A stretch of 60,067 nt of DNA, the filler included, from Sphacelaria rigidula (taxonomy: Eukaryota), in NCBI GenBank assembly GCA_964200075.2. It is 7 parts of 7 records of this genome, joined end to end, with 100 filler letters (N's around TTAATTAATTAA, not from the genome) between each part and the next. Parts side by side here need not be neighbours in the genome. Positions count along the whole stretch, not along the records: positions 25,788 to 34,282 come from CAXNAA020010976.1; 6 more parts are not named here. The stretch is one strand, 5' to 3'. The position numbers and the translations under genes are program-made. The notes beneath the pieces are model-generated. The model saw nothing but the letters and a program-made list of their open reading frames with translations, did not search any database and was not told the origin of the DNA. Shown one piece after another: positions 8,497-54,387 of this stretch; positions within the stretch are counted from its first letter, which is position 1; each line of letters begins with the position of its first letter.

Positions 8497-8596
8497 NNNN
8501 NNNNNNNNNNNNNNNNNNNNNNNNNNNNNNNNNNNNNNNNTTAATTAATTAANNNNNNNNNNNNNNNNNNNNNNNNNNNNNNNNNNNNNNNNNNNN
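8497..8596. other. Scaffold gap with artificial linker
   Basis: N44-TTAATTAATTAA-N44, identical 100-bp structure at all six gaps. Confidence 0.97.
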
Positions 8597-17092: not shown

Positions 17093-17192
17093 NNNNNNNN
17101 NNNNNNNNNNNNNNNNNNNNNNNNNNNNNNNNNNNNTTAATTAATTAANNNNNNNNNNNNNNNNNNNNNNNNNNNNNNNNNNNNNNNNNNNN
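17093..17192. other. Scaffold gap with artificial linker
   Basis: N44-TTAATTAATTAA-N44. Confidence 0.97.
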
Positions 17193-25620: not shown

Positions 25621-25687
25621 GGGGGGGGGGCGTACTCATTTGTTGCTTGCCTTAGTCGTTTGACCATTGACCACGCATCCCTTTCGA
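25621..25687 (-). mobile_element. LINE 3' terminus copy at contig end
   Basis: G run + cgtactcatttgttgcttgccttagtcgtttgaccattgaccacgcatccctttcga. Confidence 0.8.
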
Positions 25688-25787
25688 NNNNNNNNNNNNN
25701 NNNNNNNNNNNNNNNNNNNNNNNNNNNNNNNTTAATTAATTAANNNNNNNNNNNNNNNNNNNNNNNNNNNNNNNNNNNNNNNNNNNN
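25688..25787. other. Scaffold gap with artificial linker
   Basis: N44-TTAATTAATTAA-N44. Confidence 0.97.
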
Positions 25788-26649
25788 CTAGACTACTGAC
25801 AAGTCAGCGCTGACTTGTCAGTAGTCTAGTTGGTTGTCTCTTAAACCGTCACGAATCAAAACGCTACGAGGGGTACAGATTTTGCATTTCACTGTCAGGG
25901 TTTTTTCACAAAGACTATGGAGAACCCTGTACGGACCCTGCACAGTGCGTCCCACAGGGTGCTATCTGTCCACGTTTGAGGGCGTGCCTGCCCGCACCAG
26001 CTGCCGAAGCAGCTTTGCACGGGGTTTGACAAACGGATAATGAGTGTTGACGCCGTACCCTACGGCGATGGTAACATTTGATGCCGCGCTACGCTGCCAT
26101 ATGTATCACTATTATAACAAACGGTACTGTACTCTCCTCGTCTGTTGTCGCTGTACTTGAGGGGTGGTGTAGGGCACTGCACTGCTGAACTCTTCTCGCG
26201 CACTGATTGTTCACTTTTCTCGTGATACCGACGGTGCCGTCATCATGCACTGTACCACACGGCATGATTGTGCACTGTATTAAATGGGGTGTTATGCATT
26301 GTATTACCCTAGGGAACCAAGGTACGGCACTGTACTCGAAGGATTATTGACCGCCTGCCTGCCTGCTCTTCGGCTTCATGCACAAGTACGCAATACCACA
26401 TTCGTGCAGGAAATGGCCGTCGGTGTACAGAACTTTGTCACAAATTTATGATACCGTCTGAACCATAAAACGGGCCCCTCCCCCGATTTGGAGTTCGCGA
26501 ATTTGCGGTCCGGTCTGAAACAATCGAGATTCGTTGCCATAAAAGACGGTCTTACACGTTGTCTTGTTGACGGGCAACAGTGATTTCTACATTTTTTCTT
26601 CATACTACTGTCGATGCTGTCATATCCCTTCATAGGTAGTTCTTGATTC

Positions 26650-27010
26650 TGCAGGATCAGTGTCTTCTGCGTCGCTGAGATTCTTCATTTTCGGTCGAGT
26701 TTTGTCCATGTTCGAAGGTTGAAATGAGTTCATTTTGGGCAGATATCTGAGACGCGGAGGATGGGTGGAGAACGACGGTCATTCTTTAGTTCTGTACGAT
26801 CGGTGTCTTCTGCCTCGTTTCGATTCTGGATTCTTGTTCAGGATTTGTCGTTTCTTGAAGGTTGAATGCGTTCATTTCGCCTCGATTTCTCGGACGGAGA
26901 ATGGGTGGAGCTCCGCGGTTCTCGTTTTTGTTGTGCAGGACCAGTGTCTTCTGCCTCCTTCCGGCTCTGTTTTGGTCAGGTTTAATCGTCGTCGACGATG
27001 TTTGAAAGTT
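26650..27010. repeat. Degenerate ~140-bp tandem repeat, ~2.5 units
   Basis: gtgtcttctgc at ~26660, ~26803 and ~26944; gaaggttgaa...gttcattt and gatgggtggag/aatgggtggag each twice. Confidence 0.7.
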
Positions 27011-27609
27011 CAAAGAGGCAAAAAGAAGAGAACGAGTTATCTCTGGATCTTATCTTCGCCTCTAAGCACTCCTGTATGTGGGCGACGGCTGATTTCGGTT
27101 GCAACACTCCACATCATCCTTTGCCTTGGGTAACGCTTCATTGAGCGGGGGCGCGAAGCGCCAAAAACCTTGTACTATTCTTATTCCTTACGGTTGTCCT
27201 CATTCTGGGTCTCTGGACGTAGGTGCAACAATCACAGGGTCTGACAGCGCATCATTCCTCCGAAGTCCGACGCACCAGCGGCCAGTAATATTCCGCTCAT
27301 GCTTTCCCGTGTTTTTGGGAGGAATTTGCCCTATATCCACACTTTTCCGTATCCCTTCGCAGAATTTACCCGTTTCTCCGCGGAATTCGCTCTGGGACCA
27401 GTGATTTCCCTAGCCACCATAATCTCACGTTTTCCTACACGGATTCACCACCACCTGTTCCCGTGGCACTTTTAACTTATTTCTCCTCCTGGGGATATAA
27501 CGCGCAAAACCTTCAACACCAGTAACGTCCCGAGCCGTTTGACTTTCATCTCATAAACATCTAACGCATCTTATTTCCCCGGCACCAGTGACTTACTCTT
27601 CACCCGTCA

Positions 27610-29932
27610 ATGCAACGGAAGCTGTATGTTTCCCCGGTACCAACAATGCATGTTCTCATCTGTTTGACGCCCCTTTCCAGCCCCCTCCCCCCCCCCTCCA
27701 GTGACACAGTGGCTTTGGCGCTTGCCAGTGTCACCAGTCACTTTTCTCACGCCGATTGGGCCCGGGAACAGCAAGCTGAACCTGCTTGTAGAGCAGCTAT
27801 ACATTATCTATCCCAAGGAAGCCCCCCCCCCTTTCCAGAAACTGAGTTCCTTTTGCCAGTAGGGCCCCACCGAGCCCCCACACAGGATGAAGTTACTGAA
27901 TTATCGCGTAAAGGCATGCTTTATACGGATGATGATGGCGTTGTTCTTTTAGTTTACCGGCCCCCCACGAACCCTCCTGGAGGGAAATCTACAAGTAGTC
28001 ACGCCCGTTTGTTGGGTGATGTTCCCGTATGTATTTATGTTCCGATGCTTCTGCGTCCATGGATCCTCCATGAATGCCACTCACAAGCATCCACACATCT
28101 GGGCGTCGCTAGGACCTCTCAGATGCTTCAGCGTGTTTTTTCATGGATTTGTATGGGCCAATGTGTGCGTTGGTGGGTTCGGCGGTGTCTTCTTTGCCAA
28201 GCACGGAAAACTTCGCGTCAAACAGTTAGATGGCCAGTAATCTCTATGCCCCTCCCCAATGGGCCTGGTGAAATAGTTTCATGGGACTACTTTGGCCCCC
28301 TGCCCCTCACTGATAGTGGTAACAAGTACATTGTGTTGTTTACGGATCGGTTCAGTCGACATGCTGTGATGAATGCTATTTCGGAGGCCAACTATAGTGC
28401 AGAAGGGACTGCCGACGTCCTTGTGTACACAAACATCCCTCAGTGGGGTGTCCCGAACGTTTGTTATCCGATAACGGCCCACAATTTGCCGGCAAACTTT
28501 CTGCCGCGATCGGTAATCTCCTGGGTGCCCATCGTATTTTTACTTGTTCATACCATCCGTCCACAAACCGTGGGACCGAACGAGTTAATCACACGATGGC
28601 GCAAATGCTTGCCACAGTGATCAATGAGCGACAAACGGACTGGGACCTGCACTCACCCCTTGTCCAAATGAACTACAACAACTCCGTTAATGCCGCCACA
28701 GGCTTGGCTCCCAATGAAGTTCATACTGGTCGTATGCCCAGGCTGCCATTGACAGTGTTCGACAGGAAACCCCCTGGTGGTCATCAGAGTTTGGATCGGG
28801 ATATTGTGGAGCGTCATATTCTGTTAGTAATCGTCTTCGTCTTGCATATGAGGTGGCACGGGAGCAGAACTTGATCAACGCAGCCAAGGTAGCTAAGGCA
28901 AACAGCGTGTTGAATGACGCAGTGAACAGCCGTCCGATGTGGAAAGTAGGTGAATGGGCATGGGTGTATAATGATGTGAGAACTGTAACCCAAGGTGCCA
29001 GCTCTGCTAATTCGTCGTCGGATAAGGTGTTGAAGTCGAAGCTTTGCTTGAATTGGACTGGTCCTTGGAAGATTTTGGCAGTTGGGCCCTGTGATACCGC
29101 ACCTGACGATAAACCAGTAGGCGAGAAGCTTTTGTATTTGGATTTTCCCACGAATGAACCTGGCGTCGAACAAAAAAACCGGGTCTCGATGCTTCGGTGC
29201 AAGCCGTGTCTGCCCCCTCACGACACTAGTGATACGCCCAAGCAATTGCCTATGGGGTTCAGTCAGTATGTGCTAACCAGGTATGCGACGAAATCCCCAC
29301 CGTACCACATGACGGTTGAAGACGCTGACAGTCCTGTTGAACGTGTAGTGGTAGATCGCATCTCGGGCTATCAATTAGTTCGAGGTCGTGGCGGTAAGAT
29401 TGCGGTTATGTATCAGACTCACTGGAAAGGCCTCATGCGTGTTACGTGGGAACGGTAGGAGGATTTGCGTCATTTTCGAAGAGAGATACTTTTATATTGG
29501 ATCGGAGATGTCGTCCAGCAACACCCGTTGAACAAACGATATAGGTCTATGCAAAAAGGCGCAGCAGCTCGTGAACTGACCCGAGAACACTCGGCACGAT
29601 TTGTAATTTCGAGCTATAGTCTCATTTCTCATTCGCAATACCTGCGCTCTTTTTCGAAGAAACGCTTGCCGAAAGGTGCATATTATTGGTACAGGGCTAT
29701 GGATTCGCGGTGGTGGCTGGGGAAGATTCATTTGATAGATCCTGAGGCGGACGACTCCTACTACATCCGCTTCCTCGATGATCCGGGTCATCTCAAGATC
29801 CGTCTTCACGACGATTAGTACACCGAGATGCCGACCGCTCGCCGAGGATCTTGGTACCTACACCGACACGACAAAGGGGACATCGACACGGCTGTCTTGC
29901 GCAACCCCGACACGGCGTGGGACACGGAATGA
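27610..29932 (+). pseudogene. Ty3/Gypsy integrase region (HHCC, DDE, GPY/F, chromodomain, Tudor-like domain), disrupted
   Basis: HECHSQASTHLG...CLLC; WDYFGP / LSDNG / GTERVNH; NWTGPWKI; VDRISGYQLVRG...MYQTHWKGLMRVTWE; frameshifts near 28450 and 28815; in-frame TAGs at 29456 and 29816. No RT/RNase H recognised upstream. Confidence 0.92.
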
Positions 29933-31717
29933 TCTTCATAATGAATTGCGTTCCTTCCGATTTGTTTTTTTGGCGTTCCTTAACCCCCCCCGTGTTTTTG
30001 TCTTGTCGTTGGTATCGTTTTCTCAAGTACCGTTGTGAGTCGGTTGTCTACGTTTTTCCCTACCGCCAATCGTCGTCCCCCTGGTCTCGGCGTGTATTTT
30101 TTTGAATTCCCCCCTGTTTCCCCTTCTCCTCTCGTGGTCTCGTTTCCTTGAACCCAGTGTAGCCCGCTTACCTACGTTTCCCCCGGCAGTACCCAGTAGC
30201 CGCGTATGCCCGTGCTCTGTACTGAACCGTTGCCGCGTATGCCTATTCCTGTATGAAGCTTTTGTTCTCTTTCTCTTGTTTTTGTTAGCTGTTGTTTTTT
30301 GTTTTTTGTTTTTTGCTTATTTTGTTTTTTCTTCTGTTTTTTGTTTTTGTTTTTGTTCTGCCCTGTTTCCCCTTCTTCCTACCTTGCATGGCCACCTGTT
30401 TTCCTTGCTTTTGTCTTTGGTTTTTCTTGTTGTTTGTATTCGGAGGCGGCCGATGCACACCGTTGGTATTCTCCAGCACGTCCCGTACCAACCCCTTTCC
30501 GGGGCACACACCTGGTGTGTGCGATTGCCCAACCACGTCCGCCATCAACCTCTCCAACGGATTGGTTCTTTTGGCGTACCCTGCTATTCGTTCCCCCCCT
30601 ACTCTCTTCTTTGTTTTGCGTTTTTTTTTCTTTGACAGCTTGATACCGTTGGACTCACGTTGGCTTTCGATGACCGGGTTATGTGTTGCATGTCCAACAA
30701 GCCCTCTCCTTGAGTACCGTCGCAGATTCTGTGTAATTGCTCGCTGTATCAGGTGTTCCATGTTCGGGGATACTTCTTTTCTCTTGCATTATGTTCAGTT
30801 CCGTTGCTACAACAGTCCGCCAAAACAAAAAGAAACAAAATCATTTTGTTTTTCGCAGTCTCGAGGTCGTACATCCGGTCCGCCGCTTCGGAAATCAGCG
30901 CGGTGGTTTGTTTTTGTTGTAGGGTTATTGCAGGCGAATTATCGCGTTGATGTGCTCGGCGGGAGTCTTCCGTTTGTATGCACACCCTCTCGATTTTCTC
31001 GTCAGAACGGGCATGTATCTAAGAGCGGACCGCATCGGCCCCTCTTTCTGTATACTTGCCGTGGTTCACCACGAACGCATCGGATTACCCGCCTTGGATT
31101 TATCTCCTACGATTGTGTGTTATTCGTTGACGCTTTGTGGGACGATACCGGCACCTTTTTAATTCGATGGGCCGCCCTTCATCGTCACGTTGGTGCATTA
31201 TGTTGCCTCACGGCTGCATGTTGATTTTGGTTTCCGGTGTCTTCCGCTGAGCGATTTTCTTCTCTCGCTGGAGCAATCAACACCGTTGGTTTCTACTGAT
31301 GAAAGAAGTGTACGATCGTTTGTGCTTCCCCGGTACTGTGAAACGCCTTGGCGGGCTTCTTGAAAAAACTCTTACAGCGGAACTGCACGTCTATTAAGAC
31401 ATGATTTCCCCTTCGCATGATAGCAGTCAAGGTTTATATCAAGGGTTTGAAGCGGATGGACTACCGGCTTGTTTATTTTTCGCTGCTTCAGTTTTTCTTT
31501 TCTTTTTTATGGCGGATTTGTCCTGAATTCCCGGATATTTTGTAGCTCCCAGCGCTATTTTTCGAGGGTTGTCGATTCTTGGGTTTTTCACTTCTTTTGG
31601 ATTATTTTTTCCCCATATATCGTGTCGCCCTCTGAATCCCCATCACAGTACTCCCCCCTTAACGTGTCTCACATTTTCATTTTATTATGGTATCTTGTTT
31701 TACTTTCTTTTTTCTGT

Positions 31718-31729
31718 GGTGTGGGGGAA
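31718..31729 (+). promoter_or_regulatory. Polypurine tract of the Gypsy element
   Basis: ggtgtgggggaa immediately before TG at 31730. Confidence 0.55.
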
Positions 31730-32459
31730 TGGAATGTGTGGGTAAAGCAACCTCGTTTCACTGCGTTCTCCTGCGATTACTTTACCCATTAGAGGCTAGT
31801 GTGATATGATGTGACTGCAGGACATAGCCATGATCTTGGGCAAAGGTGACATTGAATGATGGAAATTTTTATGTTCAATTAGCGGAGAATTCGCTGACCC
31901 TTGAGGTTGACGTTCTACGGAGAGCATGTCTTTGAATTCGAAAAAAAGGTAGTGACCCAACCATGGCATGAATTGAGGAGCACGGCTTTTGGGTTTTATG
32001 GTATGACCTCAGCTTATGTTGATTTAGGGGGCGGCGATACACGTTTGAAATAGCAGCCCCTACGACCCCACTCTCGTTTCATTTCGGTTTGGGCTGCGAC
32101 TCGACAGTTCTCATTGGAGTATCTACAAACCGCGAGAAAGTGAGTCCCAGAGATAGGAGCAGTAGTCGGGCTGCTGTTTTGTCTGGTGTGTTATATTTAT
32201 ATAGTTTTCGGCTTGTTTCGCTTTGTGTTGTATCTCTCTGTTCTTTAAATGAGGTTGGATGCAACCAGTTGCGTGATAAAAGTGCTAGTCTGGTCTGTAT
32301 TATTTGCTTGTCTCCTTATGTGAAAGCAACACGAGAGCGACTGTGGTCAGCCCGCGCTGTTGAGCTGAGTAAACAAACAATGTACGCAGAGGTCTGGGCC
32401 TGGAACAATCGTGGTGAACACCATTACATCCTTCTCAAGGTCCCTTCACCCTTTTCACA
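31730..32459 (+). mobile_element. Putative 3' LTR of the Gypsy element
   Basis: Begins TG after the PPT and ends ...ttttcaCA exactly where Copia RT coding sequence begins; the second LTR is not in the window. Confidence 0.6.
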
Positions 32460-34052
32460 TCACACTACGATCAAAGTGATCATGATATGATCTCCTTGTC
32501 GTCCTCTCGCATATACACATGGATCACTTCCACTTGTTTGGCACCTATGCTTTGCAATTTAGTGCCGATTGTAAAGTTCCACATTAGGATTGCGTCGGAG
32601 TCCGTACAGAGCACGGCGAAGACGCATCACATGCGGTTCACCAGTATCTGGATGTTTTGATGTTTCGAACCCAGGTGGCTGCATTCGCAACACGGTGTCT
32701 AATAACTTGTAGTTTCAAAATGCGGTCTGTACATCCAGAACTAGTATGTCCCAATTTTAGCTGTAGCTATTGCTTATAGAGTTATTTTTCTCCCCAGTCG
32801 ACATACAGGCGCGAAGGTATGTTCACAGTCAAATCCATGATTTTGTGCCCAATCTTGGAAAACTAGACGGGCCTTGAATCTTTCGTCTGCTATAGCTTTG
32901 TGCACCCAACGCGTACCAATCATATCGTTGTTTGGAGGTACAAACTTGATGGAATAGTGTCTGCCACTCCATGATCCGAGATTTGTTGTAGTTTATCTAG
33001 CATGGCAGCTTTCCAATTCGTCGCATACGGTGAAGATGATGCCTGCTTAAAAATAGTAGGAATTGGAATGGATACAGGTGGTGCTACATCGTCGATAGCT
33101 ACAACAACTCCTGTACAATGAGTAAGACTGGAGAGTTTCGGAAACGCTTTTTCGTCATTTTAGAGTGTAATCATCTCAGGATCAGACTGTAACGAGAAAT
33201 GGATTCCCTTTCCGTCAAATATGGTAATCCCTTCACGTTTTTTCGATGAGATGTTTTTTTAATCTGCTCTCTGATCCTGAGATATTTGCACTCTGAAATG
33301 AAAAGAAGCGTTTTCCGAAACTTTCTACGATATAGAATTTGTTTAAGTGTTGATAGTATACAACGGAGCTCATAGCTAGTTTGCGCGATTCTATGGTTTG
33401 GCGTGTCTTCGACGATTGAGATGCAGCTTGATCTGAACTGCCTGTAGAACGAAGTAATACTGGTATTCTTCGCTGAGTGAGTGAATGGTCCAATCGAGGA
33501 ACTTCGGTTCTAGTCAAAATTTGAAATGTATATTTCTCTTCATCAGTTGGAAGTTTGAAAATACTATCTTCATTCCTGTTTTGTACCCCACTAGGAGACT
33601 GTTTATTTTCGGGGATTGTTCTGTCTGCTTGTTCTACGAAGATAATATTTCGCAAAGTTTCAAATAGACCAGTTTCTCGATTATATACATGACGAAACGG
33701 ACTATCAGAGTCATAACCTACCGGGATACGTTCCCATGCCTTTTTCTCTAACTTATTCATATGACGCTCTACGTGTACACACGCCATTCGATTATGCGCC
33801 AAAATGAAAATTTGGCATGTTCTCCGAACATAATATGACATGGGATCTCACCAGTAGTGACACTATGTGGTAGGCTATTGATTGCAAATACAGCAGTCCC
33901 GCCCATCTATCCCCATAATTTCTTGGGTAAGTTTTCTCCATTTACTAGACATTGAGTGACGTTCATGATGATTCTCCCGTCACGTCCCGACATGCCGCTC
34001 TGTTGTGGGGTATACGTTGCTGTACATTCTTGCAAAATGCCTGTCATTTTAC
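32460..34052 (-). pseudogene. Old Ty1/Copia integrase and reverse transcriptase remnant
   Basis: Minus strand, many stops and frameshifts: TPQQSGMSGRDGR, VGYDSDSPFRHVYN, WKAAM, GTRWVHK...FKARLV, TFAPV, LDVQTAF, MQPPGF, LRRALYGLR, DPCVY; integrase precedes RT. Confidence 0.9.
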
Positions 34053-34282
34053 TGTTATGGGGGTGAATGAAGGCCTTACCGACCAAAACTCCGTGGCCAA
34101 CTAAAAAGAATACGAACGCGGAGGGATATTAAAGACGTATTAAAGACGTCATTGACTGGTCGGACCTGTGCCGAACCTGTGCCAAACAGAACACACGCTC
34201 CACCCTAAGTTACCTACGTTTAGTATGCGACATGTAGCGACTGCCAGACGACCTGGACAAGAGGGCTATTCAGTGAGGGACT
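34053..34282. mobile_element. Probable LTR end inserted into the Copia integrase, cut by the gap
   Basis: Copia frame stops abruptly at TGTTATGGGGG; sequence runs to the contig end. Confidence 0.45.
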
Positions 34283-34382
34283 NNNNNNNNNNNNNNNNNN
34301 NNNNNNNNNNNNNNNNNNNNNNNNNNTTAATTAATTAANNNNNNNNNNNNNNNNNNNNNNNNNNNNNNNNNNNNNNNNNNNN
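34283..34382. other. Scaffold gap with artificial linker
   Basis: N44-TTAATTAATTAA-N44. Confidence 0.97.
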
Positions 34383-34452
34383 GGTGCGTATTCATTGGTT
34401 GCTTGCCTGAGTCATTTGACCATTGACCACGCATCCCTTTCGAGACGGAGCA
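34383..34452 (-). mobile_element. LINE 3' terminus copy at contig start
   Basis: gcgtattcattggttgcttgcctgagtcatttgaccattgaccacgcatccctttcgagacgg. Confidence 0.75.
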
Positions 34453-42877: not shown

Positions 42878-42977
42878 NNNNNNNNNNNNNNNNNNNNNNN
42901 NNNNNNNNNNNNNNNNNNNNNTTAATTAATTAANNNNNNNNNNNNNNNNNNNNNNNNNNNNNNNNNNNNNNNNNNNN
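42878..42977. other. Scaffold gap with artificial linker
   Basis: N44-TTAATTAATTAA-N44. Confidence 0.97.
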
Positions 42978-48437: not shown

Positions 48438-51400
48438 ATGGGAGAGTCCACTTCGGTGGCTAGTCAACTCATACGGAGTATCAGCAAGTTCGATGGTCAC
48501 CACTTCGTGCCGTGGCGGAGGACACTCCGCGCAACGACTGACCTTCTTCATCCCGAAATTTCTCGGATTCTGGACGGCGAGCCTCGACCCGCCGTCACCT
48601 ACGAGCGCAGGACTGCGACCACCCCAGCCGTCTCAACCCGCAGGACGAGAGGCTCAGGGGGCGACATCGGCGCCAGCGCTGACTCCGGGAGGACCGGAGG
48701 AACCGAGGCCAGCGGAGCTGAGGGCGGCCTCTCCAGCGGGCGCTCCGCGGAATTCCCGCGTCAACAGTCCCTACCGACGACCTGTTCGTCGATACGACGA
48801 TCAGCAACCAAACAGATCTGGACGCTTGGGATGGCTACAACAGGCAGCTCTTCAGCGTCCTCCTGCTGTCCACCAAGGGAGCCGCCAGCAGCTTGGTCAG
48901 TAGCCTTGCCGCGCGCGAGGGCCAAAAGCCGAACGACCAAGCTGCGTGGATTGCTCTGAACAAGAAATACCTCAATTCTTCGTCACAAAGACGGCGCATT
49001 TTAATGTGGGGTCTCCAGCAACATCTTATGGCGCCCGATCAAGACCCGGACGAGTACATCCTGGCCATGCATCAAAAGCGGGACGAGCTCCAACAGATCA
49101 ACGAGCCCGTATCGGACGCCCGCATGCAGGACTTCACTCTCGAGGGCCTGACTGGTGAATACGAGACACTTCGCTTTGCGGCGGAGAGGGACCCCGAGAT
49201 GACGCTCGAAGAGATCGAGACCACTGCTCGGAACAAGTTCGTCAATCGTGTGGCGCGCGGCGAATTGTCGGCGCCATCGCGCACAAAAGGGCGCGAGTCC
49301 GCTATGACTGCGACTCCATCGTTTCGGAGCACGTGCGATTACTGCAACAAACCTGGAAATAACAAATCGTCCTGTTTCATCCTGCAACGCGATCGCGACG
49401 CTGGCTCATCAACATCCAGCCGGAGAAGCAACTGGTGGTGCAGCTACCACAAAACGCATCTCCACGACAACGCCGACTGCATGAAGCAGCAACGGCAAAG
49501 GAACGGCGGCTCCAACGGGACCGACGGAGCCGGTCGCAACGGCGGCGGCAGCAACGGCGGCGGAGGCCGGAACCGCAGCAACAACAACGGACGCCGGAGT
49601 GGCGGAGGATCGACCTCAGGACAGGCCAACACGGCTGTCACCGTGGACTCTACGACTACAGCAACAGCTGCACCCCCGGCTCCACCTCTAGCGGCAGCGG
49701 CTACGCCCGCGCCGTCAGCGACGACTACACCATATAACAACCTATCTACCGCCCCCCCGTCCGGCACTGGCTACGCTTTCCTTGCAGCCGGCTCTCCTAC
49801 TCCAGATCCAGTCCAGTTAACCATGACGTCGGACTGCGGAGCTTCGTCACACTTCGTTGACAGCCACCTTATCAAGGACATCGAATCGCGCATGTCCGAC
49901 TTCGTCCGGCTCGACCCGCCGGTGACGATCGTCGTCGCCGGCAACAACACTCTCGCCGGAGTCAGCATGGGCACTCTCACCGTGAGCGCCATCGACGACC
50001 GCGGCAAGGCCCACGACATCCACCTGCCGACCATACACGTGCCGGGCCTAGGGCGTCACCTGTTTTCGGGAGGTACGGCAGCACTCAAGAGGGTTAACAC
50101 GGTTGTCACCAAGCAGTCGTACTTGGACGTCGGACCGTTCAAGATTCCACTTCGAAAGGACATCGACTGCCCCACTATCGATTATGTCGATCTCAAGCTA
50201 GCCCCTACCATGACGACCCGTGCGGAGGCAGCCTTTCCAACTAGAATCACCTCTGGACATACTCTTCCAATCGGAAGAGCAATGGCCTCACGTCTAATTT
50301 GTAGCGGGGCCACAGCGGCACCTACAGCAACACTGCCGGCTCTGATGGCCACGCCAGGGTTGCCGGCCACGTCAACTACCCCTTTGCCGGTTCAACCGGC
50401 TACCGCCATGCCGGCGGCGGGGGCACACACGTGACACCAGCGCCTTGGACATCCCAACGAGCGCACGATGCAGGCGGCGCGGGACATCGCCGAGACGGGT
50501 GCTCAGTTTACCGGCTCGCTGATCTCGTGCGAGGTCTGCCAAATCAACTAGGGCGTCAGACAGCCGATTCGGAACAAGCCGGCTTCAACCGTCATCTCCG
50601 AAAGGCTGCAATTGGTCAGCATGGACCTATTGGGACCCGTGACCCCCCCGGCGCGTGAGAATTTCAGGTACATGGCCACGTACTCCGACCACCACAGCGA
50701 ATTCAAAGCCGTCTACTTCATTTCCACCAAGGACGAAGCACCTACAAGGCTTGTCAAATTTGTGCAAGACTTGGCTATGCCGCTGGGACTCCGAATTCAG
50801 CACCTACGGGCCGACAGTGGTGGCGAGTTTATCGCCGGCTACTACCGCAAGTACTGCAAGACCACCGCGGTCGTCCAACAGTTCAGCTCGCCCAATACGC
50901 TGGAGAAAAACGGCCTCAGCGAGCGCGACGGGCGCACAATCATGGACGTGGCCCGGTGCCTTCTCAACGGCGCAGCCCTCCCAAAGTCCCTCTGTGGGAA
51001 AATGGCGGCCACTGCGGTTTTTCTCCTGAACCGCCTGCCGAACAAGACTATCGGCGGAAACACCCCCTACTACAGGATGTTCGGCAAGCACGTCGATCTA
51101 TCCTTCCTGCGCACCATCGGGGCGCGCACCTTCGTCCACCATGAGGGGCATCTACGCAAGTTAGATCCTAGGGCGCGCGAAGGAGTTCTCATCGGCTACG
51201 ACAACAACAAGCCTACCTACCGAATCTACGACCGTCACAGAGGGCAGGTCATCAGCACCCGCAACGTCACTTTCATGGAGACGCCGCCGGTCGCTGTTCG
51301 CACCACAACCGGCGCCCGGGGGCAAGATTACAGCGACGAACCAATTTATGAGGACTTCGCGCTGGACAGCAACAGTGCCGATGACAGTATCGACATCATC

Positions 51401-51472
51401 AACGACAACACCAACGACCGCTTTTTCAACGGCATCAGCAATTTGGACGCAGCAGACGACTCGAATGATTCA
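48438..51472 (+). pseudogene. Ty1/Copia gag-protease-integrase polyprotein, lightly disrupted, truncated by the gap
   Basis: KFDGHHFVPW Gag start, zinc knuckle CDYCNKPGNNKSSC, protease DCGASSH, pre-integrase T*HQRLGH...CEVC, integrase SMDLLGP / LRADSGGEF / NGLSERDGR, REGVLIGY; frameshift near 48770, stop at 50432. Confidence 0.93.
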
Positions 51473-51572
51473 NNNNNNNNNNNNNNNNNNNNNNNNNNNN
51501 NNNNNNNNNNNNNNNNTTAATTAATTAANNNNNNNNNNNNNNNNNNNNNNNNNNNNNNNNNNNNNNNNNNNN
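51473..51572. other. Scaffold gap with artificial linker
   Basis: N44-TTAATTAATTAA-N44. Confidence 0.97.
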
Positions 51573-52275: not shown

Positions 52276-53168
52276 GTGAGCGCGTAGTTGTGCTGGATGC
52301 CACTCCTGCGGTCCTAGATGGCCTCAAACCGCTCCACCTCCACCAGAGCAAACGCAACACAGCGGACCTAGAGGCACAAGATGCGGACACCCCGAAGTTG
52401 GGATCGGACATTATTCGTATTTTTCTCCGTCAGAGCGTCGTGCCAGTCAGTACCATTCTTTGAGTGAATTGCATGTGTTGGATCCGATGTTTCGGCAAGG
52501 TCAACAAATGGCTGACAAGTTCTGACAACAGCCGTGAAGCCTCAAACTGTATGCGATGCCATGTATCGTCTTTAGTACGGGAAAGGGGCCATGGAGATTT
52601 TTTCAGGCGAGTGGCAGCCGTCCGTCTCTGGTCGGGCTGCACCGACATACCGCAACCCTCGTTTTGCTTCCAAGAGTACAGTAACTCAATTGTTTCCAGG
52701 TACAGTAACTAAAAAAATTAAGTTGGGCAATCAGCACAGGTTCTCCTGGGCTCCAGGAAGTAAGCGGAGGTGGGAACTAGTGTGGTGCTTCTTCACGATC
52801 TCGTTCATCTCTTGAGCGTCCAGTCTGTCAAGAGTTGGCTCTTCTCACGGCAGTCAAAGACAGCCTGCCATACCACAGAGTACAGTTCTTGACGGACATA
52901 ACCTGCTGCCTGTTTGCGCTTTTGCTGGGTCCTCGCGGTCTCCAATTCCTCGCAACATTTACAAGAGTATCAAATCTCGCGACCAACCTACCTGTCTCTC
53001 ATGGAAATCAGGTCGCACAGTCGGCGTCCCTCGGCGCATATCACAAATCCAGCAGGCGAACGTTTTAATATTGTAGTTTGATTTTTCAAAACATGGCACG
53101 ATGCGACATAATGTTTCCATCTCCTTTTTGCTTCTACATACACTCCTCAACATGACCCGGTCCGGCAG

Positions 53169-54105
53169 GGGCAAAACCCGCTTCAGGTGCGGCCGGCAGA
53201 GGGCCAGGCGGAGCAGGAAAACAAGCTTTTCGTTGGCATGGCTCCCAAATCGGCCAACGAGGATGAAATCCGGGCCGTGTTTTCGCCGTATGGCACTCTG
53301 CGCGAGATTCACGTCATTCGCAACCAAGATGGCACCAACAAGGGTTGTGCATTTGTCAAGTATACCACGCGCCAGAGCGCTCTCGACGCAATCGAGGCCC
53401 TCCACGAGCAATACACGATGCAGGGGGGACCGCGCCCTCTCGTTGTCAAGTTCGCCGACAACAAACGCGGAGCGCAGGCGGCGGGGCGTCTCGGCGGTAT
53501 GGTCGGCTCTCCCGGCAGGCACGGCGGCCCCCACCCCGAGGCCGGATGGCTGCACCCGGGGGCGGGACAAGGAGGGGGGGGGGGGGGGTACGGTTACCCT
53601 GTGCCAGGGCCAGGCATGTCCCCGCATATGATGAACATGCAGGGTGGCTACGTTCCCTACGGCGGCACGCAGGCCCAGGGTGCTCCTCCCCAGGGGTACC
53701 ATGTGTACTACCCTTACGGCCCTCCGGGTGGGTACCAAGGTGGCGCTGTGGGTGGCGGCGGCGGAGGCGGGAGCGGAGGCGGAGGCGGAGGCGGCGGCGG
53801 CGGTGGACACTACCATGCGGGACCACCCAGCCCGCCCCGTGGAGGCGGTGGGTACGGCGGGGTGGGCCACGCCCGTTCCCCGGAACATCGTCATGCGCCG
53901 CGCGGAATGTATGAAAGTGTGGAAGATGCCGGGATCGCAGCGGCGTCCAGGCCAGCCGAAGGCCCGCCGGGGGCAAACCTATTCATTTACCATCTGCCGC
54001 AGGACCTATCGGATGCGGACCTTGCCACTGCATTTGCGCCATTTGGTCACGTGCTGAGCGCGAAGGTGTACATCGACCGGGAGTCGGGGGAAAGCAAGGG
54101 ATTCG
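53169..54105 (+). CDS. CELF: CELF/Bruno-family protein, exon with RRM2, Gly/Pro/Tyr-rich linker and start of RRM3
   Basis: ggcag|GGG acceptor, G|gtgagg donor; ENKLFVGM...KGCAFVKY...PLVVKFAD; EGPPGANLFIYHLPQ...GESKGF. Confidence 0.93.
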
Positions 54106-54387
54106 GTGAGGAACTCTAGGGCCTAATTTTTTCCCCTGCCTACCGCGGAGAGGCTGGCGGGGAGTTGGAGCACGGAGGGGGCTAGGGCACCCAAAATCTG
54201 TACGATAGGGTGACTTCATGCACAAGACATGGAGTTCTGGCGTCGATTCGTACAAATCTCTTCTTGGCGGCGATCGATAGATCAGTCAGTCCTGTTTTTG
54301 CCTTCTTTTTGCCTTCTCACGCGCATCCTTTCCCTTGCCGGTGTTCGCCATCCGCATTTCCCCCCGATGACGTCCGTGCATCAACAG

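Follow-up and report, generated by a model that had tools for sequence, protein, structure and literature searches.

Reader domains fused to integrase are the best understood way in which retrotransposons choose their landing sites. In brown algae the usual heterochromatin marks are missing, which makes the target of their many chromodomain-bearing Gypsy elements a live question, and a locus of Sphacelaria rigidula raises it in a particular form: does the integrase of a Ty3/Gypsy element carry, behind its chromodomain, a second domain suited to reading chromatin? We analysed the whole stretch of 60,067 nucleotides in which this locus lies (the window), and we read 27709-29932 as a 5'-truncated, decayed brown-algal Ty3/Gypsy LTR retrotransposon, whose C-terminal module would probably have been a chromatin tether in active copies (a reading to which we give a probability of about 0.7). 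With its conserved second barrel of the Royal-family type behind a chromodomain poor in cage residues, this module would offer a concrete and testable candidate for the recognition in question.

The copy in the window

The window bears six identical 100-nt linkers (44 N, TTAATTAATTAA, 44 N), one every 8595-8596 nt, a regularity from which it follows that seven fixed-size pieces have been joined artificially and that the two flanks of a linker do not adjoin in the genome. The chromodomain-barrel element sits in the piece 25788-34282. A 61-nt direct repeat (92% identity) lies before one linker and after the next (25627-25687 and 34383-34443), and the pieces bearing it may be related or overlapping.

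Full-length relatives, used as tblastn queries, match the element in frames 1 (27709-28455), 3 (28446-28802) and 2 (28823-29926) in succession, with frameshifts near 28446-28455 and between 28802 and 28832, and the match starts at about residue 890-1450 of these relatives (Table 1). Pfam recognises Integrase_H2C2 on 27592-28617 (E 3.7e-13). The GPY/F module of Ty3/Gypsy follows the integrase core, reading GPW in the window copy (29060-29068); all 17 aligned sequences share its G and P, and by majority the homologues have GPF there. Translation of the plus-strand frame 28718-29932 meets two TAGs as the only in-frame stops before its natural end, which bears out the initial annotation, where a frame at 28853-29932 was described as broken by just two TAGs, and carries the open stretch back to 28718; the peptides quoted there were found in the frame exactly as given.

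With the same queries, gag, NADAR, RT and RNase H gave no match anywhere in the window, and NADAR is missing because the 5' part of the copy is gone. There are no further copies of the element within the window and no second LTR in the piece 25788-34282, hence the 3' LTR and the PPT are undefined. Given the 5' truncation, the two frameshifts and the two nonsense codons, the window copy is a dead relic and cannot function.

Table 1. Features of the element and of the window (positions along the whole stretch)
Feature	Position	Strand	Basis or remark
Pol remnant, first frame: pre-integrase region, H2C2 zinc-binding domain, start of rve core	27709..28455	+	tblastn with full-length relatives
Pol remnant, second frame: remainder of rve core	28446..28802	+	tblastn; rve matches split over two ORFs
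Integrase C-terminal region, third frame, including GPY/F-type motif	28823..29335	+	tblastn, alignment
Chromodomain	29336..29503	+	broken by TAG 29456-29458
First in-frame stop	29456-29458	+	TAG, inside chromodomain
Linker with long helix (29534-29584)	29504..29608	+	AF2 model
Pre-barrel segment: strand 29615-29623, helix 29630-29650	29609..29665	+	AF2 models
Tudor-like five-stranded barrel (predicted)	29666..29869	+	AF2, Foldseek, VIA-align wide, PHF19 profile match; broken by TAG 29816-29818
Second in-frame stop	29816-29818	+	TAG, inside barrel
Short C-terminal tail, small helix, then TGA	29870..29932	+	AF2 model, alignment
Natural end of frame	29930-29932	+	TGA
Linkers	8497-8596, 17093-17192, 25688-25787, 34283-34382, 42878-42977, 51473-51572		

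Several other features were seen in the window. Upstream of the truncated element, a unit of roughly 142 nt is repeated three times in tandem at 26642-26969 (75-77% identity over the 44 nt reported). The same piece also carries, on its other strand, part of a Ty1/Copia element (32774-33847, minus strand; RVT_2, E 3.2e-8; retroviral SH3-like domain, E 2.7e-6). A 121-aa stop-to-stop ORF that is at most putative runs antisense to the sequence encoding the barrel (29492-29857, minus strand). Farther away, 48722-51517 (plus strand) contains ORFs for a Copia-type gag (Retrotran_gag_2, E 5.7e-8) and a Copia-type integrase (rve and SH3_retrovirus, E 2.6e-20), the latter entering the linker at 51473, and an ORF with two RRM_1 RNA-recognition motifs (53112-54116, plus strand; E 3.1e-25) is probably part of a host gene.

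Intact relatives and the two C-terminal folds

The 404-aa read-through of the window copy, with X at the stops, served as the query in a search for longer proteins among 2617 candidates, and 16 of these match it (E 3.6e-131 to 3.2e-65). According to the alignment, chromodomain, linker and tail lie in one unbroken ORF running to the protein's own Pol C-terminus in 14 of the 16; the other two, P0016 and a fused gene model from Undaria pinnatifida (P0015), stop within the chromodomain or shortly behind it. Intact copies therefore do not terminate at the position of the first TAG (29458), the outcome that would have spoken against the initial annotation; the ORF passes through, and the second module that it had placed behind the chromodomain and a linker belongs to the same ORF in intact relatives. 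The closest of them (73-87% identity) have sense codons at both TAG sites: P0192, an "unnamed protein product [Sphacelaria rigidula]", is 73% identical and covers 100% of the 212-aa module, while P0193 and P0194 reach 86-87% identity to the window copy. Where a comparable C-terminus is kept (P0192 and P0017), the protein ends within 2-3 codons of the TGA of the window. Queried alone, the 119-aa tail piece (29459-29815) matched 214 representative clusters at E<=1e-3, of which 60 passed E<=1e-10 and 3 passed E<=1e-30; most of them are short fragments.

Among the 14 Pol homologues with the continuous ORF (P0001-P0014), mean pairwise identity is highest in the chromodomain (0.71) and the integrase C-terminal region (0.67), followed by the barrel and the loop with the last strand (0.59 each) and the linker (0.53); it is lowest in the extreme tail (0.43) and the pre-barrel segment (0.40). 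The tandem is conserved among relatives that are just 45-50% identical, and we hold with high confidence that two Royal-family-type folds stand in tandem at the integrase C-terminus, within one ORF.

The folds themselves were modelled with AF2 on the 212-aa module of the window (X at stops, 144 homologues in the alignment), which gave a two-domain model with a pLDDT of 91.5 and a pTM of 0.82: residues 20-70 form three strands plus a helix and residues 81-97 a long helix, and the second half comprises a short strand with a helix (108-119) and five strands (130-192). The first domain is predicted as a three-stranded sheet (29351-29383, 29399-29425 and 29441-29452) with a packed C-terminal helix (29468-29503), that is, a chromodomain fold, and the chromodomain claimed earlier appears structurally genuine. 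Between its first two strands lies a VRGRGG hairpin with an RGG-like turn (29378-29395, model residues 29-34), invariant in 17 aligned sequences and strongly conserved in the wider family alignment.

The tail modelled alone (113 aa) gave a pLDDT of 84.7 and a pTM of 0.73, and its strands (29681-29695, 29711-29737, 29756-29773, 29789-29803 and, after a 16-residue loop, 29852-29869) form the five-stranded SH3-like barrel of the Tudor and Royal family in the AF2 prediction. The initial annotation had placed such a barrel at 29666-29810; AF2 and Foldseek predict it there, extending to 29869. In the PDB, the top Foldseek rows are the Tudor domains of PHF1 and PHF19 (E about 0.01-0.02, probability 1.00, rmsd 1.9-2.3), followed by those of MTF2, PHF20, TDRD3 and PHF20L1, with nothing at E<=0.001 for the module. 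Among viral models (BFVD) there was likewise nothing at E<=0.001 and no retroelement Pol, the rows being confined to small barrels of a generic kind from phages and giant viruses. A family profile run against PDB sequences returned the PHF19 Tudor as its best three matches (E 0.013-0.016, over the stretch LpkGahfWykarDglWwLGki...YivrFldd), the MPP8 chromodomain coming after it (E 0.06-0.3), and the ESM Atlas gave several Tudor or Agenet clusters, every score below 0.9, which we take as leads at most. As far as these models go, the best structural and profile matches of the second module are Royal-family readers, and the barrel is likely to be homologous to Tudor/Royal-family domains.

The likeness to PHF1, PHF19 and MTF2 comprises the motifs DGLxxLGKI and F-x-D (F-x-D-D/N in the PHF19 alignment) and 25-28% identity over 47-49 columns, with match E-values that are marginal. 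The present barrel differs in that two of its four cage positions are non-aromatic, in an extra N-terminal strand and helix, and in the 16-residue loop before the last strand. Furthermore, those proteins, whose Tudor domains read H3K36me3 according to their PDB titles, are PRC2 accessory proteins, whereas the present barrel sits on a transposon integrase, and brown algae are described in the available text of PMC13076208 as having no PRC2.

At curated thresholds, Pfam reports neither a chromodomain nor any Tudor family, in the window or in the full-length relatives, and annotation at those thresholds misses both domains in this lineage. The Chromo family (PF00385) reaches 13-15 bits, short of its gathering cut-off of 25.1, and one relative (P0200) has a precomputed PF00385 match. 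Below threshold (E<=0.1), the 145 family members match SH3_VIII-1_N (15), Agenet (9, best E 0.0018), Chromo (6) and BRWD_AD (1, E 0.0014), Agenet and BRWD_AD too remaining under their curated cut-offs.

The barrel is also present without an integrase in a second protein family, and on the strength of these sequences it appears to behave as an independent module. Two of these proteins, P0076 and P0082 (and with them P0191), share homology from end to end (29% identity, E 5e-59) and consist of a coiled-coil and a Ser/Arg-rich region, then the pre-barrel segment and the barrel, with no chromodomain and no integrase; in P0076 and P0082 the module starts at the pre-barrel segment (the equivalent of 29609..29665). 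Another protein, P0086, has chromodomain and barrel after an unrelated N-terminus. The N-terminal parts of P0076, P0082 and P0086 gave no match to the gag-pol relatives at E<=1e-3 or 1e-4, which rules these proteins out as simple internal-deletion derivatives of the gag-pol proteins compared. Element fragments are fused to a kinase (Undaria), a TIMP/WSC protein and a Copia integrase in P0015, P0041 and P0227, and these fusions are likely annotation chimeras.

Lineage and published counterparts

In the relatives, Pol has the Ty3/Gypsy domain order of RT, RNase H and integrase (H2C2, rve), seen in Pfam as RVT_1, RT_RNaseH, Integrase_H2C2 and rve in that order. Gene models of 1618-1848 aa hold only these four in Pfam. 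Longer forms have a precomputed PF08719 match, and in all four of the longest relatives the N-terminal portion of Pol bears a NADAR domain of the YbiA type (Pfam, E 1e-43 to 4e-49). Two of these four, P0172 and P0179, fall in the clusters, formed at 90% identity, to which P0006 and P0009 belong, and at the very C-terminus they carry the motifs of both chromodomain and barrel. With 197 members in the P0009 cluster, on contigs of up to megabases, some sublineages are abundant; the named matches come from Ectocarpus sp. CCAP 1310/34, Sphacelaria rigidula and Undaria pinnatifida. Because the full-length relatives carry an N-terminal NADAR, we place the family in the NADAR-bearing brown-algal Gypsy lineage, already published in 2025, which fits these observations. 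Intact relatives encode NADAR, RT and RNase H, an integrase with H2C2, rve and GPY/F, a chromodomain, a helical linker and a Tudor-like barrel.

As far as the available text of PMC12477816 goes, there are four Gypsy lineages in Ectocarpus, three of them, ECR-1 included, with "putative C-terminal chromodomains", and the chromodomain lineages are unrelated to chromoviruses. NADAR occurs at the N-terminus in one lineage, Gypsy-12_Ec32 exemplifying both the NADAR and the chromodomain lineages. The fourth, "the final lineage" (Gypsy-10_Ec32), has a C-terminal Tudor and is the first transposon reported with one, Tudor-bearing Gypsy elements being found in Ectocarpus and Tribonema. Contrary to what the initial annotation implied, the element is probably no chromovirus, strictly speaking: it belongs to the NADAR lineage, which the same text sets outside the chromoviruses.

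That annotation had also called the architecture unfamiliar, and here the answer is divided. A Tudor on a Gypsy element has already been published (Gypsy-10_Ec32), PMC12477816 being the sole report that we found of a Tudor on any transposon in the literature, supplements aside; in the same body of text, again supplements aside, no description was found of a chromodomain and a Tudor in tandem on one integrase. Our material looks like an unreported detail of a published lineage, of which the tandem arrangement alone may be new. One could go further and suppose that the element simply is the published Tudor-bearing Gypsy-10_Ec32 lineage, with nothing new about it, since PMC12477816 does report Gypsy elements with a C-terminal Tudor in Ectocarpus and Tribonema. 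This we regard as improbable: NADAR is present in four of four full-length relatives, and the available text gives NADAR to one lineage (Gypsy-12_Ec32) and the Tudor element to "the final lineage".

Compared by description in that text, the Gypsy-12_Ec32 NADAR lineage has in common with the present family the Ty3/Gypsy Pol, the N-terminal NADAR and a chromodomain after the integrase, and differs in that a "putative C-terminal chromodomain" is all that is mentioned, with no downstream barrel. Gypsy-10_Ec32, compared in the same manner, also has a Tudor-type domain on a brown-algal Gypsy integrase, but it is a separate lineage for which neither chromodomain nor NADAR is mentioned, whereas the present barrel follows a chromodomain. 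The centromeric ECR-1 of Ectocarpus is likewise a brown-algal Gypsy with an integrase-chromodomain fusion, in which all three cage aromatics are kept according to the available text of PMC11541908, against one in the present family. In the plant chromoviruses Tekay, Reina and Galadriel, the group II chromodomains likewise are integrase C-terminal and lack the first and third cage aromatics, and by the available text of PMC3605345 they had been seen in plants only; the present lineage is a stramenopile one, reportedly outside the chromovirus clade, and has the second barrel.

What the module may recognise

In active copies, by analogy with chromoviruses, the module would probably tether the integrase and cDNA complex to chromatin, and would thereby bias target choice as chromodomains do there. 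The chromovirus chromodomain directs integration, as cited in the available text of PMC11541908.

The aromatic cages were compared with the canonical cage residues of MPP8 and PHF19. The MPP8-aligned cage (F/W/Y) corresponds to model residues 18, 44 and 47 of the family, where position 18 is L/I/V (30/38), position 44 is W (52/59) and position 47 is L/I (40/56); the window copy has V (29345), W (29423) and L (29432). The three-residue cage is thus reduced to its central Trp, one of three, which corresponds to the group II pattern of PMC3605345. In the barrel, the cage Trp of PHF19 aligns with A135 (A/G/S, 113/138), the cage Tyr with W141 (117/132), the cage Phe with F160 (84/118) and the fourth position, placed by ungapped extension, with P166 (88/114); two of the four cage positions (W141 and F160) are aromatic. 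W132, Y133, W140, Y156, Y176 and W187 are further strongly conserved aromatics of the barrel region. The HP1 chromodomain, by comparison, has a Y-W-Y cage (PMC3605345, available text).

The earlier description of the second module as a Royal-family aromatic-cage reader consequently stands for the Royal-type five-stranded barrel (AF2, Foldseek and profile) and falls short for the cage; by the same token, two readers on one integrase hold as a tandem of both folds, and not as a pair of canonical cages. Since both canonical cages are incomplete, that the module acts as a histone-mark reader can only be inferred, and on the models at hand we put this at slightly below even odds. For the same reason recognition is probably non-canonical, perhaps through a composite surface of the two domains or with a ligand other than H3K9me/H3K27me, and the loss of an H3K9me-type cage together with the presence of a second barrel is consistent with the recognition of something else.

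That the tail might be no real domain at all, just a frame left open by accident or a 3' stretch of the element that is never translated, is an idea which the stops of the window copy and the blank in Pfam at curated thresholds could encourage; it is extremely improbable, and the 214 clusters matching the tail, the continuous ORF of 14 of 16 homologues and the confidently predicted AF2 fold refute it, as does the conservation of the barrel (0.59). A more serious rival accepts the domain and takes the barrel for a generic SH3-like adaptor that binds DNA, RNA or a host protein and reads no histone mark, for example as another DNA-binding barrel of the integrase CTD type or for docking, with the degenerate chromodomain serving as no more than a scaffold. 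The incomplete cages (1/3 and 2/4) agree with it, as do the commonest weak Pfam match, which is to an SH3 family (15/145), the KOW and other nucleic-acid-binding barrels among the structural matches, and the TraI matches. Against it, the sole sequence-level signal points to a methyl-lysine-reading Tudor (PHF19, E 0.013), the motifs in common with PHF19 surround the two cage positions that are still aromatic, and the barrel is paired with a chromodomain. On balance we consider the adaptor rather unlikely, and a chromatin tether remains our preferred reading of the module.

According to the available texts, brown algae have no DNA or H3K27 methylation, and H3K9 methylation is mostly undetectable (PMC13076208), weak at most (PMC13076208, PMC7784034); H3K36me3 marks active gene bodies, whereas H4K20me3 and H3K79me2 mark transposons and silent regions (PMC13076208, PMC7784034), H4K20me3 marking transposons in Ectocarpus (PMC7784034). 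It is conceivable, though in our opinion rather unlikely, that chromodomain and barrel act together as a single composite reader adapted to the chromatin of brown algae; such a reader would recognise a mark typical of the lineage and thereby steer the integration of NADAR Gypsy elements. Candidate marks would then be the transposon-associated H4K20me3 or H3K79me2, or else H3K36me3, the ligand of the barrel's closest structural match. A complex prediction of the P0192 chromodomain and linker against its barrel, run without controls and without a family alignment, scored 0.14 (mark 0.34) and carries no weight here. Were the composite reader real, the barrel-only proteins P0076 and P0082 would represent a second use of the same reader.
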